This document shows, one piece after another, positions 11,722-36,116 of a stretch of DNA of 64,000 bases. A program made the translations under genes and the position numbers. This DNA comes from Armatimonadota bacterium (GTDB taxonomy: Bacteria; Armatimonadota; Fimbriimonadia; Fimbriimonadales; GBS-DC): positions 32,001 through 96,000 of the forward strand of contig JBBIML010000010.1 of assembly GCA_037444405.1 (NCBI GenBank), given 5' to 3'. Each line of letters opens with the position of its first letter. Position 1 is the stretch's first letter. The notes under the pieces were generated by a model. That model had not been told where the DNA came from, ran no database searches, and saw nothing but the letters and a program-made list of their open reading frames with translations.

Positions 11722-13386
11722 TCAGGGGTTGAACCATCCCGCTGATAACTGTCTCAGGCTGGGGAGCAGGCTGGGCAGCTGGTGCGGGGCGAGGGGTGGT
11801 TCGGTGCCATCGGGCGTGCCCAGCCCGCGCCGAACCACCTCCCACCAGTCCCATGCCACTATCTGACTCGCATCGAAGATCATCACACCATGCGAGTTGA
11901 GCCGCGCGGCTCGAATCGCCCGCTCAAAGCCTGCCGGGTCGCGAACATAATCGTCGGTGTAGATGCCCGCATAGACCAGCACCTCGCCGTTCGTCCAGTC
12001 CATCACGCGGCGCGTCATGCCCTCCACCGTGCGCACCTCGTCGGCATCGTACAGCGGCGCCTCCGCCATAAAGGGCACATTGAAATAACAACCGGGCATC
12101 AGATAGTCCAGATCGAACAGGTAGGAGCTGAAGCGATAATCGCTGTCGATGAAGGCGTAGGGGCGTTCGAGCGCGTCGCTGCCCCAGTTGACGCCCAGCT
12201 CATAGTAGAGCGGATACCAGCTGCCCACATAGGCGCCGATGGGCATCGGGCGTACCGACTCCACCGTGCGCCGGATCTCGCGCAGCAGGTCGCGAATCAC
12301 CTCCGCGCGGAACTGAACCCACTGCCCGAAGCGGGGTCCGCGCTCATACGCCGCGCGGGGCATCTCTGGCGGGCGCAGGATGTCGTCGGGGAAGTTCGCC
12401 ACCCGCCCATAGCGCGCTTCGAACGCCGCGCGGGTCAACTCCGAAAAGTCGGTGTACACATTCGCCCAGCGCATCCGATCCAGCACCAGCCCATCGATAG
12501 GGTAGTTCTGGCACAGCTCGCCAATGAGCGCCAGCAGGCGCGAGCGCACCTCCGGATGCAGCGGGTTCACAAACACCGCGACGCCTTCCGTGTCCGATTC
12601 GGCAATCGGCTGCAGAATCGGCTGGGTTTCCAGTCGGAGCGCGACGCCCAGCGTGGCAAGCCGCTCCAGGCGAGCCGCCGCCTGACCATCGGCGACCAGC
12701 ACCCAGCCGTCTTCGGGCGGGCGAATCGGCTGGCTAACGAAGACGCCGTCCACAATCGCCTGCACGCGCAGGTCGTCCGTCAGCAGGGCGTAAGCCCAGC
12801 TGCGCCCGGCAGGCGGCGGCGCGTTCGCACGCCGATAAGCCGAGATGCCATCGGGCGGCGGCGCAAGGTCGAACCGATCCAGTGGGTAGCGCGTGCCATC
12901 GGGCAGAACCAGCGTGCGCCTGCGCGAATAGGCGACCATCTGCCAATCGCGACGCTGATACGCCACGCCCGTGTGGAACATCTTGTGCCCTTCCGAGAGC
13001 GCATTGATGCTGGCATGCACCTCCAGCCCCTGCGCGTGCGCCTCCTCCAGAAACATCTGCAGAATGTCTAAATCGGGCGGCACACGCACCCCACGCCACT
13101 CCGTCAGCGGCGGCGCAATCTGGCTCCTATACAGCACATGACCGCTCACAGGCTTCACATCCAGCACAATCGTGTTGAGACCGACGCGCCTGCAGTTCGA
13201 AACGAAGGCGCGCACGCGCTCGCGTTCGATAAGCCACACCAGATTAGCAGCGGCATCGACCCATATCACACGCCCTTCCAGCCCCAGCCGCCGCACCAGA
13301 GATACCGAATCGGGCAACGATTGCGCCAGCAGCGAAGGGAGCCATCCCAGAAAGAGCCAGACCAGCAGTAGAGAGCGAAAACCCAT
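11722..13386 (-). CDS. secreted glycosyl hydrolase-like 10 (GHL10) family protein
   Basis: signal peptide; GLN.IVLDVKP, EAH..GLEVHA, FVNP.HPEV, YPIDGLVLD. Confidence 0.75.
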   Translation of the reverse strand: MGFRSLLLVWLFLGWLPSLLAQSLPDSVSLVRRLGLEGRVIWVDAAANLVWLIERERVRAFVSNCRRVGLNTIVLDVKPVSGHVLYRSQIAPPLTEWRGVRVPPDLDILQMFLEEAHAQGLEVHASINALSEGHKMFHTGVAYQRRDWQMVAYSRRRTLVLPDGTRYPLDRFDLAPPPDGISAYRRANAPPPAGRSWAYALLTDDLRVQAIVDGVFVSQPIRPPEDGWVLVADGQAAARLERLATLGVALRLETQPILQPIAESDTEGVAVFVNPLHPEVRSRLLALIGELCQNYPIDGLVLDRMRWANVYTDFSELTRAAFEARYGRVANFPDDILRPPEMPRAAYERGPRFGQWVQFRAEVIRDLLREIRRTVESVRPMPIGAYVGSWYPLYYELGVNWGSDALERPYAFIDSDYRFSSYLFDLDYLMPGCYFNVPFMAEAPLYDADEVRTVEGMTRRVMDWTNGEVLVYAGIYTDDYVRDPAGFERAIRAARLNSHGVMIFDASQIVAWDWWEVVRRGLGTPDGTEPPLAPHQLPSLLPSLRQLSAGWFNP

Positions 13387-13501
13387 CGGAAAGCGATTAT
13401 ACCCCCAGCCCGATCTTCCCGAAAAGGCGGCAGAAACCGAACATTTGGGCGTCGAATGGGGTATAATAATTTGCCATGTAGGTGTTCGGGCGGGTGCACT
13501 C

Positions 13502-13531
13502 TTGACATGCCCGCCACGCCTGTGGTATAAT
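13502..13531 (+). promoter_or_regulatory. consensus sigma70 promoter
   Basis: TTGACA 13502-13507, 18-nt spacer, TATAAT 13526-13531. Confidence 0.75.
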
Positions 13532-13600
13532 AGGTGTGGTAGGTGTTCGGGAGGATGCGCTCCCAATCCAGAAACACCTGCCGAAAGGAGGAACGGTGAT

Positions 13601-14686
13601 ATGATGAATCGATGGCTAATGGCTTGTACGGCAGGCGCCATTCTGTGCGCCGCTTTTGCGTATGCGGACGGTCAGAAGTTCGCACAGCTGCAACCGCATC
13701 CCGGTACTCTTCAACTCGCTCAGCCTTTGCGAGCCTGCAAAGTGCGCCTGATCAACGGTCAGGTCGTGCAGGTCGGTCCCTGGATTGAGCTGTCCCAGTT
13801 CAACCCGGCAAGCGGCTTGCCACCTTCGCCATGCTCAGCAGGCGGAGCCCTTGCCTTCGACAATGTCGAGATGGACGCGAGCGGTCAACTTTGCGAGAAC
13901 GACAAATACGGTCCATCCTGCGACCTCGATCAGAACGGTCAGCCCGACTGCCCCCATTTCTTCTGGTGGTTCGGCCAAACCTACAACAACCCCTTCTGGG
14001 TGAACGACATTGCGCAGCTGGTGTCGGGCACAGCAGGCACGCAGGCGACCGGCGTGGTGCCTGTCTGGTGTGTGTTCGGGAATAACGCCCCCTTCATTAT
14101 GGTAATCTTCACCGCGGAGGACTTTGATGATACCTGCAACGGTCCTGCTGCGGGTAACATCTACGACGGTGTTGCCTACGACTTCGGCGCTCTCGGGAAC
14201 GGCTGCTGGTACTCCCTTATCTGCCTGGATGGCACGGGGCTGTTCCACCAGATGCCAAACGACGGCAGCGGCGCGTACATCGGGGTCTACCTGACCAGCC
14301 TGAATCCTGTCACGCTGTATCCGGGGCCAGCCCAGCCGCTGCTGTGGGGCACGAAGCCGAACAACCCCAGCCAGCAGGGACCCATCCAGTGGGACGACGA
14401 CAACCCAACCGATGGTCAGCACACCGCACCTGATGAGTGCTACGACTACAGCTTCGGCGTCTGTCCCGACCCGCTGGGCGCTGCGATGGCGTTCTGGGCG
14501 CAGGCTGCGGGCTGCCAGCCCAGCGGCGGGGATGTGGACGGCAACGGCTGTGTGGATGACGCCGACCTGCTGGCTGTGCTGTTCGCGTTTGGCGGCTCGG
14601 GTGGTCCCGAGGATGTCAACTGCGACGGCGTGGTGGACGACGCCGACCTGCTGGAGGTTCTCTTCAACTTCGGCAACGGCTGCTAA
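13601..14686 (+). CDS. secreted Cys-rich protein with C-terminal dockerin/EF-hand-like double repeat
   Basis: signal peptide; GDVDGNGCVDDADLL / EDVNCDGVVDDADLL; AAAGGAGG RBS. Confidence 0.8.
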   Translation: MMNRWLMACTAGAILCAAFAYADGQKFAQLQPHPGTLQLAQPLRACKVRLINGQVVQVGPWIELSQFNPASGLPPSPCSAGGALAFDNVEMDASGQLCENDKYGPSCDLDQNGQPDCPHFFWWFGQTYNNPFWVNDIAQLVSGTAGTQATGVVPVWCVFGNNAPFIMVIFTAEDFDDTCNGPAAGNIYDGVAYDFGALGNGCWYSLICLDGTGLFHQMPNDGSGAYIGVYLTSLNPVTLYPGPAQPLLWGTKPNNPSQQGPIQWDDDNPTDGQHTAPDECYDYSFGVCPDPLGAAMAFWAQAAGCQPSGGDVDGNGCVDDADLLAVLFAFGGSGGPEDVNCDGVVDDADLLEVLFNFGNGC

Positions 14687-14691
14687 GTCGT

Positions 14692-14734
14692 CCCTCACCC
14701 CTTACCCCCTCTCCCGAAGCTTCGGGAGAGGGGG
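14692..14734 (+). repeat. palindromic repeat CCCTCACCC..CCTCTCCC-loop-GGGAGAGGG, copy 1
   Basis: hairpin cccctctcccgaa/ttcgggagagggg after stop codon. Confidence 0.75.
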
Positions 14735-14824
14735 ATTTGACTCTCACTCCTTTGTTCCCTCGCCCGAAACTGCACGCTCGCAACCCTCGCTTCTTTGTTC
14801 CCTCCCCCGTGCCCTCTCCCCCTT

Positions 14825-14841
14825 TTGGCACGAAAGTTGCT
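14825..14841 (+). promoter_or_regulatory. sigma54 -24/-12 promoter
   Basis: TTGGCACGAAAGTTGCT, matches YTGGCACGRNNNTTGCW with GG-N10-GC. Confidence 0.7.
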
Positions 14842-14851
14842 CCATGCTGAA

Positions 14852-14954
14852 GTGCAAAGGCGTTTTCGGTTTGCGCGGCTTGCGTCCTGTGCACCTCCCT
14901 CCCTCTCACAGGGGTCCCGGTGTCCCTCCCATCGGGACCCCACCCTTTATTTTT
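14852..14954 (+). ncRNA. candidate sigma54-dependent small RNA
   Basis: downstream of sigma54 site; two hairpins with UCCCUCC loops; U-rich end. Confidence 0.55.
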
Positions 14955-14981
14955 ACCCTGCGGGTATAATTTCCCGCGAGG

Positions 14982-17630
14982 ATGGCGGCAATCGACTGGC
15001 AGACCTTTAAGCCTCAGACACCGATTTTACAGCAATACTTCCGGGTGAAGGCGCAGCATCCCGAAGTGTTGCTGGCGATGCAGGTGGGCGACTTCTATGA
15101 GTTTTACGGACCCGACGCGGAGCTGGTCGCCCGCGAGCTGGAGATTGTGCTGACGGGGCGTGAGGACGGCAGCAACGGGCGCATCCCGATGGCAGGCGTG
15201 CCTATCCACTCCTATGAACGCTACTTCGCCCGACTGGTGCAAAAGGGCTATCGCGTCGCCATCTGCGATCAGGTCGAAGACCCCAAACTTGCCAAAGGGC
15301 TGGTCAAACGGCGCGTGACGCGCATCCTGACGCCCGGCACCGTCGTGGAAGACTCCATGCTGGAATCGACCGCCAACAACTATCTGGTGGCGGCGGTCAT
15401 CGGCGAACCTGTGCATGGGCTGGGCGTGGTCGATGTGTCCACCGGCGAGTTCCTCACCACCGAAATCGGCGGCGAACACCGCTTCGAAAAGCTGCTGGAC
15501 GAAATCTTCCGGCTGGAACCTGCCGAGATTCTGGTGCCGGAAGACCAGACGGAGCTGATCCAGACGCTTCGCGAGCAGACCAGCGCGACGATTACCCCTG
15601 TTCGGCTGGAGGAGCTGATTGGTCGGGACGCGCGCCAGATTCTGCTCCATCACTTTGGGGTGGAGAGCCTGCGAGGCTTCGGCTGTGAAGGGTACACGCG
15701 CGGGCTGGACGCCGCCGCCCTCGTGCTGCGCTACCTGCAACAGAACCAGTTCCAGACCCTGCAACATATTCGCACGCTCGCCACCTACTCGGTGGAGCAG
15801 TTCATGTATCTCGATTCGGTCGCGCGACGCCATCTGGAGATCACGCAGAATCTGATAGACGGCTCGCGCCGCTACACGCTGTTGAGCGTGCTGGACAGCA
15901 CGCGCACGCCGATGGGGGCACGGCTGCTCAAACGCTGGCTGGATGAGCCGCTGCTGAATGTGGACGCGATTAATGCCCGCCTCGACGCGATTGAGTGTCT
16001 GACCCATCACAACCTTCATCGGGAGGCGCTGCGCGAGCGGTTGCGCCGAATGGCAGATCTCGAACGGCTGATTGCTCGCGCCAGCACGGGCACGGCGAAC
16101 CCGCGCGATCTGGTCGCCCTCCGAGGCTCGCTGCAGGAGCTGCCCGCCCTCTACACGGAGCTGCAGAGCCTGTTGAGCGAGCTGGCACGCGCGCCCACAC
16201 TGTTGATGAATCTGGCGCCGCGCCTCGCGCCGATGGACGAACTGCGCACCCTGCTGGAGCGCGCCCTCGTGGACGACCCGCCCACCAACCTGCAAGCGGG
16301 CGGCATCATTCGCGACGGATTCGACCCCGAACTGGACAGGCTCCGACAGGTGCGCACCGAAGGGCGCAACTGGATCGCCCAGCTGGAAGCGCAGGAACGC
16401 CAGCGCACGGGCATCCCCAGCCTGAAAGTGGGCTATAACGCCGTGTTCGGCTACTACATCGAGGTATCCAAGCCCCATCTGAACAAGGTGCCCTCCCACT
16501 ATATCCGCAAGCAGACCACCACGCAGGCGGAACGCTTCATCACGCCCGAACTGAAGGAGCAGGAAGCCATCCTGCTGGGCGCGGAAGAGCGCATGAACGC
16601 GCTGGAGTACGAACTCTTCTGCCGCGTTCGGGATGAGGTCGCCCGCAACGCGCCCGCTATCCAGTCGCTGGCACGCGCGCTGGCGGAACTCGATGTGCTG
16701 TGCGCCCTCGCCGAGAACGCCGTGCGCTACCGCTACACCCGCCCCCTGGTCGACACCGAGGACCGCCTGCGCATTATCGGCGGTCGCCACCCCGTCGTCG
16801 AGCGCTACAACGAGAACCCCTTCGTGCCCAACGACTGCGAACTGACCCCCAACCAGCGACTGATTATCCTGACGGGACCGAATATGAGCGGAAAGAGCAC
16901 CTTCATACGACAGAATGCACTGATAACTCTCATGGCGCATATCGGCAGTTTTGTGCCCGCGGACAGGGCGGAGATTGGGCTGGTGGATCGCATCTTCACA
17001 CGCGTGGGCGCCCGCGACGAGCTGGCAACGGGGCAGTCCACCTTCATGGTGGAGATGATCGAGACGGCGAACATTCTGAACAACGCCTCGCCTCGCAGTC
17101 TGGTGATTTTAGATGAGATTGGGCGCGGCACCAGCACTTATGATGGGCTGGCTATCGCGTGGGCAGTCGCCGAATATCTGCACGCGATCGGCTGCAAGGT
17201 GCTGTTCGCCACACACTATCACTACCTGAACGAGCTGGCGAATCGGCTGGAGGGCGTGGCGAACTTCCGCGTGGCGGTCAAGGAGCAGGGCGACCGAATC
17301 ATCTGGCTGCACAAGGTGTTGCCCGGCGGCACTGATCGGAGCTACGGCATTCATGTGGCGCGGATGGCGGGCGTACCGCCAGAGGTGATTGAGCGCTCCG
17401 AGCAGATTCTGCGCGAGTTTGAGCGGCGGGGCGTGCAGGCGTCGCTGGCGCCACCTTCAGAAGAGGCGCCAACCATCCGCACCCAAAAGATTCAGCTCAC
17501 CCTGTTTGAGGGGGAGGAGCATCCCCTGATTGAGGAGTTGCGCCAGTTAGACCCCGCCACGCTGACGCCTGTGGAGGCGTTGATGAAGATCGACGAGTGG
17601 AGGCGTCGGTGGGCGCAGCGCGGGCGATAA
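14982..17630 (+). CDS. mutS: DNA mismatch repair protein MutS
   Basis: GDFYEF, TGPNMSGKS, STFMVEM, LDEIGRGTST, FATHYH, SYGIHVA. Confidence 0.97.
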   Translation: MAAIDWQTFKPQTPILQQYFRVKAQHPEVLLAMQVGDFYEFYGPDAELVARELEIVLTGREDGSNGRIPMAGVPIHSYERYFARLVQKGYRVAICDQVEDPKLAKGLVKRRVTRILTPGTVVEDSMLESTANNYLVAAVIGEPVHGLGVVDVSTGEFLTTEIGGEHRFEKLLDEIFRLEPAEILVPEDQTELIQTLREQTSATITPVRLEELIGRDARQILLHHFGVESLRGFGCEGYTRGLDAAALVLRYLQQNQFQTLQHIRTLATYSVEQFMYLDSVARRHLEITQNLIDGSRRYTLLSVLDSTRTPMGARLLKRWLDEPLLNVDAINARLDAIECLTHHNLHREALRERLRRMADLERLIARASTGTANPRDLVALRGSLQELPALYTELQSLLSELARAPTLLMNLAPRLAPMDELRTLLERALVDDPPTNLQAGGIIRDGFDPELDRLRQVRTEGRNWIAQLEAQERQRTGIPSLKVGYNAVFGYYIEVSKPHLNKVPSHYIRKQTTTQAERFITPELKEQEAILLGAEERMNALEYELFCRVRDEVARNAPAIQSLARALAELDVLCALAENAVRYRYTRPLVDTEDRLRIIGGRHPVVERYNENPFVPNDCELTPNQRLIILTGPNMSGKSTFIRQNALITLMAHIGSFVPADRAEIGLVDRIFTRVGARDELATGQSTFMVEMIETANILNNASPRSLVILDEIGRGTSTYDGLAIAWAVAEYLHAIGCKVLFATHYHYLNELANRLEGVANFRVAVKEQGDRIIWLHKVLPGGTDRSYGIHVARMAGVPPEVIERSEQILREFERRGVQASLAPPSEEAPTIRTQKIQLTLFEGEEHPLIEELRQLDPATLTPVEALMKIDEWRRRWAQRGR

Positions 17631-26103: not shown

Positions 26104-26225
26104 CTGAAGCATCCCTCCTCCATGAGTTTTTTGGAAGGATACAGTGTGGGAGGGGGCGCAAGCAGCCTGTCCGAAGGTTCCCTGTTTGCGCACTCCCTCG
26201 CGCACGGACTGATCCTTCGCCCCCT

Positions 26226-35123: not shown

Positions 35124-36116
35124 CTATGAAGAATAAACAAAATAACATAAATCAACCAAAAACAATTTATAATAATAACTTTGTAAAATATTAAATTTAT
35201 TTAATTTTTGAAAATTTTCTATTTGAAAAATAACATCTATTTGGCTTTTCCTGATATCAACTACTGAAAGATAGAGAATTTTTGTACTATCTCTTGGAAT
35301 ACCAACTAATAAAGCCCACTGTCCATCATCGGTTATGTCTAACCCGTGAACATATTTCCAGCGATGCTGACCAGGGCGCAATATCACATGTTTTTTTCCA
35401 TCATGTGTTTCACACTTTACATAAGGATAGGTTTTTATGGTCGTCTTTAGTCCATTACCGATGGTTTCTGTTTTAGACCCCTCTATGCGAAGGCGGATCT
35501 GATGATGGCGTGAGTAGGCGTAGTATGGATATCCATGCCGAAAACGCTGGTCTGTTAGCGCCCAATCTCCACTCAGCTGCTTAACTTCGTTGACATTCAG
35601 TACACGACGCTTCCCTGTAGTAACATCTTGTCGGTAATAGACAAGGCGAGGTTTTGCTGCACGGCTTGCTGGAAACTCCAGCTCATACCAGATGTGACGG
35701 CTGTCAGGATACCAACCAAACTTTTTAATCTCACCCTTTCCATAACTTAGTTCGCGAACCTCCTCTCGTCTGAGAACATCGAAAAGGCTCAAGTTATGAT
35801 AATACGCAAACCCCCCGATCGAGTTGCCCAGCAGATACCGGCTATCTGGAGAAAATAGGCTAAGATAAAGAGCGTTTGATAAAAGGTTGAACTTCTCTCC
35901 CACCTGTAAGTTTGCTAACAGAGTAGCTACCGTTATGCAGTAAATCCACTGCCGGTCGGGAGAAGTCCGCGCCTCCCGATGGTAATCAAATGTCACAGGA
36001 AAGAGTGACTTCGCCTGCCACTTGCCCGATTCGTACCTTGCGATGGTTAGATAGTTGTTCTCAGTGCAAACCAACTCTATGGGCGGTGGAGTGTTCCTGT
36101 TGATAAAGAAGCTCAT
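35124..36116 (-). CDS. hypothetical TolB/WD40-like beta-rich protein (paralogue 1)
   Basis: FSPDSRYL, FGWYPDSRHIWY shared with neighbour; GGAGGG RBS; low GC. Confidence 0.65.
   Translation of the reverse strand: MSFFINRNTPPPIELVCTENNYLTIARYESGKWQAKSLFPVTFDYHREARTSPDRQWIYCITVATLLANLQVGEKFNLLSNALYLSLFSPDSRYLLGNSIGGFAYYHNLSLFDVLRREEVRELSYGKGEIKKFGWYPDSRHIWYELEFPASRAAKPRLVYYRQDVTTGKRRVLNVNEVKQLSGDWALTDQRFRHGYPYYAYSRHHQIRLRIEGSKTETIGNGLKTTIKTYPYVKCETHDGKKHVILRPGQHRWKYVHGLDITDDGQWALLVGIPRDSTKILYLSVVDIRKSQIDVIFQIENFQKLNKFNILQSYYYKLFLVDLCYFVYSS

Follow-up and report, generated by a model that had tools for sequence, protein, structure and literature searches.

A candidate sigma-54-dependent small RNA gene upstream of mutS in an Armatimonadota bacterium, with C-rich motifs complementary to G-rich ribosome-binding sites

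The DNA that separates mutS (ORF 14982–17630) from the gene preceding it in an Armatimonadota bacterium raises the question of whether this spacer holds a gene of its own and, if so, on which messages its product might act. The window analyzed here is a stretch of 64,000 nucleotides from an assembly of 2.68 Mb with 62.5% GC, and all positions given without a further label refer to it; G000 denotes the window's own genome, g1 its genus and f1 its family. A first-pass annotation of the window had placed a sigma-54-dependent small RNA (sRNA) of about 100 nt at 14825–14954, apart from mutS; this RNA would present C-rich anti-Shine-Dalgarno motifs in two hairpin loops. Genome comparison supports the core of that proposal—a terminator-bounded sRNA with CCCUCC motifs—and corrects several of its details. 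We consider the best explanation overall to be a free-standing, sigma-54-driven sRNA whose C-rich motifs pair with G-rich ribosome-binding sites, with a probability of roughly 0.6; judged from the sequence comparisons described below, the existence of the sRNA gene itself is very likely. All strings quoted in the annotation were found where it had placed them, and the features of the locus are as follows.

14750 and 14793: the two copies of a 12-bp direct repeat, ctttgttccctc (string check)
14825–14841, plus strand: sigma-54 promoter, string TTGGCACGAAAGTTGCT, with −24 TGGCAC and −12 TTGCT; exact consensus, conserved in 21 of 21 homologues
14852–14892, plus strand: variable 5' part of the RNA, with a start predicted near 14852 from the spacing to the −12 element
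14886–14891 and 14907–14912, plus strand: arms of hairpin A, cctgtg and cacagg (string check)
14893–14909, plus strand: motif 1, CACCUCCCUCCCUCUCA, which includes CCUCCCUC and UCCCUCCC; predicted unpaired
14911–14941, plus strand: predicted terminator hairpin of 12 bp, with the loop UCCCUCC at 14923–14929 and the octamer UCCCUCCC at 14923–14930 (fold, terminator scan)
14913–14922 and 14930–14939, plus strand: arms of hairpin B, ggtcccggtg and catcgggacc, with the loop tccctcc at 14923–14929 (string check)
14942–14954, plus strand: U-rich tail ACCCUUUAUUUUU (terminator scan); the string ctttattttt ends at 14954 (string check)
14962–14970: GGGTATAAT, before mutS (string check)

The promoter is the feature from which the proposal started. 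The site at 14826–14841 (TGGCACGAAAGTTGCT) matches TGGCAC-N5-TTGCW exactly, in agreement with the first-pass annotation, and is the sole match in the window, for which 0.07 would be expected by chance; at least one match arose in 7 of 100 shuffles. When one mismatch to the sigma-54 consensus is allowed, the window holds two sites—no more than chance. Genome-wide, strict sites number 15 against about three expected from the window rate, and 12 of the 15, the sRNA site included, share a purine-rich RNAAR spacer (TGGCAC-RNAAR-TTGC). The three strict sites without this spacer comprise two inside ORFs, one of these a Cas6 gene.

These numbers bear on the simplest objection, namely that there is no gene here at all, only a chance sigma-54-like site in a C-rich spacer, with hairpin B acting as a second terminator for the upstream gene. 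A consensus site does appear by chance at the rate just given, the spacer (14687–14954) is pyrimidine-rich throughout, UCCCUCCC also occurs at 14799–14806, outside the predicted RNA, and the C-rich 25-mer at 14800–14824 recurs in the genome. We nonetheless find this reading hardly credible: promoter, motifs and hairpin are found together behind different upstream genes in 21 genomes of three genera, the stem covaries strongly, and a 13-bp hairpin at 14705–14734 already belongs to the upstream gene, which stops at 14686. The element is also single-copy in its own genome, where the eight other matches are all 42 nt or shorter. As separate observations on the neighborhood, the 25-mer just 5' of the promoter is a short dispersed repeat with four further copies in G000 (89–96% identity) and several in the congeneric genome G002; the second of the two 12-bp repeat copies lies partly within it. 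The C-terminal end of the upstream gene product (13172–14686) consists of two dockerin-like DxDxDG...DDADLL repeats.

To place the candidate sRNA gene in an evolutionary context, we compared it across related genomes. The element is present in all three other genomes of the genus, where the alignment shows similarity from TTTGGCAC to the hairpin and differing DNA on either side; in G003 and G001, the sequence does not run on into mutS. The 5' part varies in length, at about 10 nt in genus g5, 25 nt in g3 and 41 nt in g1, and within g1 there is a 71-nt insertion in G001 together with indels of 2 nt in G003 and 1 nt in G002. Indels of one and two nucleotides between members of a genus argue against coding, and a small-ORF reading of the element was rejected on their account.

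A covariance model restricted to the 3' part of the element, from motif 1 to the tail and with the promoter left out (R1), gave matches at E-values up to 0.01 in 20 of the 29 family genomes, with one strong match each; G015, G019 and G024 each contain a second, weak match without a promoter. All 20 strong matches are preceded by TGGC[AG]C-N5-TTGC, at a distance of 23–54 nt in the other two genera and of 51 or 122 nt in g1. A second model, R2, built from 21 sequences, added G014, likewise with a sigma-54 site, bringing the count to 21 copies at one per genome, in all of which the TGGC[AG]C-N5-TTGC promoter is kept. The family tally of 21 in 29 genomes divides into 4/4 for g1, 13/17 for g3, 4/4 for g5, 0/1 for g2, 0/2 for g4 and 0/1 for g6, the four g3 genomes without a match being 65–85% complete. 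Thus, the −24/−12 site is kept together with the motifs and the hairpin across three genera, and the genes that flank the 21 copies differ.

Beyond the family, the element fades. An order-wide search with R2 returned the window's own genome plus 20 of 28 genomes of f1, and only two weak matches in the four other families of the order (122 genomes), neither of them with a sigma-54 site; another 150 genomes, drawn from across the phylum, gave three weak matches (35–38 bits), again without such a site. The candidates L048–L050, G052, G064, G185, G222 and G233 were rejected as members since they have no sigma-54 site. Four weak matches in other Armatimonadota families (34–38 bits; G052:C1:252016-252092, G222:C20:48783-48861, G233:C21:15162-15243 and G185:C8:117130-117210) are nevertheless alike in layout, each having a C-rich stretch, a GC hairpin with a CCCUCCC-type loop and a U run but no sigma-54 site, and those in G222 and G233 have a 5' block in common and stems that differ by compensatory changes. 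An exact-pattern scan of species-representative genomes yielded 27 stretches, 14 of which contain TGGCAC and the hairpin and carry, without exception, the label Fimbriimonadales or Armatimonadota; the remaining 13 (one in Chthonomonas, 12 outside Armatimonadota) have neither and were taken as chance. Unrelated to the sRNA, many-copy tandem repeats bounded by CCCTCCC occur on many contigs of G004 and at contig ends of G006, with units of about 38–45 nt and of 21 nt, respectively.

The predicted structure gives the candidate RNA its 3' boundary. The stretch 14852–14960 (109 nt) folds at −40.0 kcal/mol (z = −4.2), with none of 200 shuffles as stable, and a terminator scan returned the 12-pair stem at 14911–14941, nine of its pairs being GC. 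The two hairpins drawn in the first-pass annotation fared differently: B is found in the minimum-energy fold, two pairs longer than described, whereas A is not formed in it. Hairpin A is also poorly kept, being perfect in two of the four genus members, carrying one G-U pair in another, broken in the fourth and absent from the two other genera. Because hairpin A is not conserved, only one motif lies in a conserved hairpin loop; the notion of two anti-Shine-Dalgarno loops therefore stands for UCCCUCC in the terminator loop and lapses for motif 1. The folds of seven RNAs place motif 1 in an unpaired stretch or a large loop and motif 2 in the terminator loop, and these models suggest that motif 1 is probably single-stranded. 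Motif 1 is invariant in the four genus members; among the 21 homologues, 19 contain CCUCCCUC, 19 contain UCCCUCCC one or more times and 16 contain CCCUCCC twice.

The covariation expected of a genuine stem is strong. Among the 12 terminator pairs, 11 change on both sides (53 cells, 21 sequences), a result seen in 0 of 500 shuffles. The helix is paired in 95.5% of cells, as against at most 55.9% for slid-partner controls, in a 21-sequence alignment that was fitted to the covariance model and so favors structure; in the raw sequences, the three genera have three different stems (GGGGUCCCGGUG, CGCGCCCCAGG and CGCGCUCUGGC). A U run directly follows the stem in g3 and g5 (GCGCGGUUUU, GCGCGAUUUU), giving a canonical terminator, while in g1 it stands 4 nt off the stem and makes for a weaker one, so that termination in g1 may leak into mutS. 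The conserved boundaries lend some support to a discrete, independently transcribed RNA.

It is at this boundary that a second alternative has to be weighed: the element could be a cis-acting leader in which the sigma-54 promoter serves mutS and the hairpin is an attenuator with regulated read-through. The mutS start codon is 28 nt downstream of the element, in g1 the U run does not follow the stem directly, and a contig of a relative in an RNA library continues 147 nt past the hairpin—all of which a leader would accommodate. Yet the downstream gene varies between genera and within the genus (G003, G001), the conserved block stops at the hairpin, and the terminator is canonical in g3 and g5. 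Moreover, mutS has its own TATAAT at 14965–14970, 11 nt 5' of its ATG, as had been claimed for it, and the g5 neighbors have their own GGGTATAAT. We accordingly regard a leader as very unlikely. The mutS start has a peculiarity of its own, in that GAGG abuts the ATG with TATAAT 11 nt away, so that its transcript would have almost no leader; in g5, GGGTATAAT likewise lies 3' of the sRNA terminator, and the RNA-library contig has GTGTATAAT in that place.

As for that library, one metatranscriptome run contained 0.05 of the sampled words and three contigs at 90–95% likeness. The 219-nt contig of a relative covers 14873–14930 with five differences, starts 14 nt earlier and runs past the hairpin as described; since contigs of this kind cannot show transcription or RNA ends, it is a weak hint at most, and the uncovered parts of the stretch and the absent start carry no weight.

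We then turned to the machinery that would read the promoter. Sigma-54 is encoded in the genome (102 bits), as the annotation's reading of the site presupposes, and rpoN is present in 28 of the 29 family genomes, including genera without the sRNA. The genome has a single true bacterial enhancer-binding protein (bEBP), which scores 247 bits, with no other AAA+ protein above 34 bits; it is a protein of 396 residues with a REC domain at 5–114, a Sigma54_activat domain at 143–309 and a lid at 314–391, and without an HTH_8 domain. Its alignment covers positions 5–392 of the 461-residue AtoC model and 1–381 of the 463-residue NtrC model and ends, in both cases, well short of the model's own end, from which we conclude that the protein lacks the DNA-binding tail. 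Immediately 5' of the bEBP gene is a HisKA/HATPase kinase gene (locus L081, G000:C6:265181-267442, histidine kinase gene then bEBP). The gene after the bEBP gene (C6:267873, 134 aa) has GGGAGGGA as its ribosome-binding site. Known bEBPs without a DNA-binding domain include those of Chlamydia (CtcC) and Helicobacter (FlgR) (PMC7482065, PMC3162934).

This protein also accounts for what is absent upstream of the promoter. Neither the comparison of G000 with G002 nor that between genera revealed conserved DNA beyond about −35 that could serve as an upstream enhancer site, which we attribute to the sole bEBP having no DNA-binding domain. With such an activator, an enhancer site is not expected and the 12-bp repeat, which had been put forward as a possible binding site for an enhancer protein, is not needed; the repeat is, in any case, absent already in the closest relative.

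The remaining sigma-54 sites offer a view of the regulon. Genes following them encode a sigma-70-family factor, a REC-PilZ protein, two PEP-CTERM proteins, a wza-like exporter, a GH130 enzyme and a DAHP synthase. Judged by these predicted functions, the sigma-54 regulon appears to be concerned with the cell surface and polysaccharides, in agreement with the comparative view of sigma-54 in PMC3162934. The sigma-54-driven sigma-factor gene and the sRNA gene are 1.8 kb apart in g3. Other non-coding products may exist: at L086 (G000:C6, about 253470–253587, minus strand), another sigma-54 site precedes GGGGAGCAAAGCCUGCCCUCGYAAGGAG, a conserved non-coding block common to G000 and the g4 loci L181 and L188, and in g4, a terminator-like hairpin and a U run follow it. 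This block, which has no Rfam match, may represent another sigma-54-dependent sRNA. At the g4 loci L177 and L190, a sigma-54 site precedes a GC hairpin and repeats of a unit resembling GAAAGAGAGCAAAGCAGUAC, a further candidate sRNA.

Which messages the sRNA might pair with is the next question. Two GGAGGGA sites in the window had been suggested as targets: the one at 26112–26118 is present, on the minus strand, whereas the one near 36116 is not, the sequence there reading GAGGGAGGGG on the minus strand. Genome-wide, the complement of UCCCUCCC, GGGAGGGA, has 48 copies, 14 of which stand 3–10 nt before a candidate start codon, ahead of genes of mixed function. Among the sigma-54-driven genes, the wza-like gene has its sigma-54 site 55–88 nt and GGGAGGGA 4–9 nt upstream of the start codon, and both are kept in 22 of 22 genomes (g1, g3, g4 and g5) within a leader that is otherwise variable; in g2 and g6, this gene has neither. 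The next gene, wzc-like (744 aa, with a P-loop ATPase domain), carries GAGGGAGG in these same 22 genomes, whereas its counterpart in g2 and g6 has just GGAGGA. The two ribosome-binding sites, GGGAGGGA and GAGGGAGG, are exact complements of the two motifs in the sRNA. The GA at the end of GGGAGGGA finds no partner in the 3' end of the 16S rRNA (GGAUCACCUCCUUUCA), and the ribosome-binding site of HtrA, used as a control, drifts, being of the GGGAGG type in 7 of 26 genomes.

Pairing energies are consistent with this picture for one of the two genes. In a crude ranking of duplex energy over 2098 start regions—with rough gene calls and start codons, and with loop flanks that include possibly unfree stem bases—wza came 3rd with the loop motif, 86th with motif 1 and 3rd by the sum, while the wzc-like gene came 148th, 99th and 75th, respectively, and is no outlier. 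Ranking by energy with long seed regions proved noisy and dominated by mis-called internal starts, and it was abandoned for seed matches and short-seed energies. A search in g3 for a long antisense target (19-mer, up to three mismatches) returned only the sRNA gene itself and scattered single matches. One further gene with an GGGAGGGA site in three genera, encoding a 244-aa secreted Ig-like protein (G000:C7:157324-158055, with orthologues in G002, G011 and G012), was set aside as independent evidence: it is present in 4 of 29 genomes at 77–95% identity, which looks like transfer, and recent transfer at that.

The genus g4 limits what these sites can tell. Its wza-like gene has the sigma-54 promoter, and the G-rich ribosome-binding sites of this gene and the next are both there, but no sRNA was detected, and the conserved sites thus need not be due to the sRNA; besides, a site of the GGGAGG type is a strong ribosome-binding site in its own right. 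The search for a g4 sRNA covered the covariance models, the sigma-54 sites, the double-motif pattern and one long structured leader, which precedes a gene, and returned none; the double-motif pattern reads the same backwards, which makes its control uninformative, and it matched only tandem repeats.

Evidence of this sort leaves room for a third alternative, that the RNA is indeed a sigma-54-dependent sRNA but works without specific mRNA pairing, either as a decoy that mimics the anti-Shine-Dalgarno end of 16S rRNA and vies for strong ribosome-binding sites in general, or by titrating a protein that binds C-rich RNA. Each RNA carries two near-identical C-rich octamers, and protein-sponge RNAs can be built in the same way; the core of the 16S 3' end reads CCUCC; no shared function unites the 14 start regions with GGGAGGGA; and g4 keeps its G-rich sites without the sRNA. 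Set against this, there are two motifs only, far fewer than known sponge RNAs carry, the analysis identified no C-rich-binding protein as a candidate, and specific pairing better fits the exact complementarity, over 8 nt, with both genes of a single co-regulated operon. We judge a decoy or sponge to be unlikely. Both Hfq and CsrA are encoded in the genome; CsrA binds GGA, which is the opposite strand to the sRNA's motifs.

Returning to the preferred reading, a sigma-54-driven sRNA that pairs with G-rich ribosome-binding sites, the element can be set beside known systems. A scan against Rfam 15, which includes RsaE, 6C, Qrr and GlmY, gave no match on the element at E-values up to 10 in the window or up to 1 in four relatives; sub-threshold matches to VA RNA and Antizyme_FSE fell on the terminator of the upstream gene (14689–14740) and were dismissed as chance. 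In RsaE/RoxS of Firmicutes, which are short RNAs, the C-rich motifs that pair with G-rich ribosome-binding regions are exposed in loops or in unpaired stretches. The actinobacterial 6C sRNA likewise pairs with such regions through C-rich motifs (PMC6486639). The element resembles both in being short and in having several C-rich motifs in a loop or unpaired stretch. It differs from them in its sigma-54 promoter, its phylum and its lack of any sequence or structure match in Rfam, and further in that its one conserved hairpin doubles as the terminator and that its motif is CCCUCCC rather than C runs alone.

Dependence on sigma-54 has its own precedents. NrsZ of Pseudomonas is a sigma-54-dependent sRNA, and the activators LuxO, GlrR and NtrC bind upstream activator sites. 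NcS25 of Burkholderia is another such sRNA, and so are Qrr1-5 of Vibrio and GlmY of Enterobacteria (PMC3045617, 10.1101/2021.07.01.450815). The element shares with these four systems an sRNA gene with a −24/−12 promoter and a two-component bEBP as the predicted activator; unlike them, it would rely on an activator without a DNA-binding domain, and Rfam indicates no homology. A parallel in circuit design comes from Campylobacter jejuni, in which FlgR is the sole bEBP (PMC3162934) and sRNAs belong to the RpoN-controlled flagellar hierarchy (PMC11187230). A sole bEBP and, as predicted here, an sRNA within the sigma-54 regulon are common to both circuits; the regulon here, however, comprises wza-like, PEP-CTERM, REC-PilZ and sigma-70-family-factor genes instead of flagellar middle genes, and the sRNAs of the C. 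jejuni circuit are unrelated in sequence to the element.

Combining these observations, we propose the following course of events. The interval 14825–14954 would be a free-standing gene for an RNA of about 100 nt (65–175 nt in relatives), at which RNA polymerase with sigma-54 would start near 14852, as judged from sequence and conservation. The genome's single bEBP, with its receiver and AAA+ domains, would activate this promoter from solution under the control of the adjacent histidine kinase, and transcription would stop at the GC-rich hairpin 14911–14941 and the U-rich tail, before the separate mutS promoter. The RNA would present two C-rich copies—CCUCCCUC/UCCCUCCC in single-stranded form and UCCCUCC(C) in the terminator loop—and these may pair with G-rich ribosome-binding sites and thereby change the translation or stability of target mRNAs, possibly with the participation of Hfq. 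We infer this anti-Shine-Dalgarno mechanism from the complementarity, and action by pairing with such sites is, in our view, slightly favored. The sigma-54-driven wza/wzc-like polysaccharide-export operon is the leading candidate target, although its being a direct target is a tentative suggestion; were it one, the sRNA would form a feed-forward loop inside the sigma-54 regulon. A still wider scheme, more doubtful again, would have the activator without a DNA-binding domain run the whole regulon enhancer-free, several sRNAs included, with this sRNA as the feed-forward arm on the export operon through the seeds UCCCUCCC:GGGAGGGA at wza and CCUCCCUC:GAGGGAGG at wzc.

On present indications, the element would constitute a new sRNA family, with a well-supported gene and promoter, a mechanism that we infer and a target put forward as a hypothesis. 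Armatimonadota have very few cultured members, and no paper listed in a literature search connects this phylum with sRNA biology, so that, by this measure, it has no regulatory RNA on record. Against that background, the locus offers a well-bounded, covariation-supported RNA gene suitable for description as a new RNA family, in a regulatory context that can be read from the genome, with a single sigma-54, a single activator that has no DNA-binding domain, and roughly a dozen promoters. A concrete hypothesis for how surface-polysaccharide export may be tuned comes with it. If the similar elements of other Armatimonadota families, which have no sigma-54 site, are true homologues, they would point to an older sRNA family in which the promoter changed. 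More broadly, the design of a C-rich sRNA directed against ribosome-binding sites, known from Firmicutes and Actinobacteria, would here occur in a distant lineage and under sigma-54.
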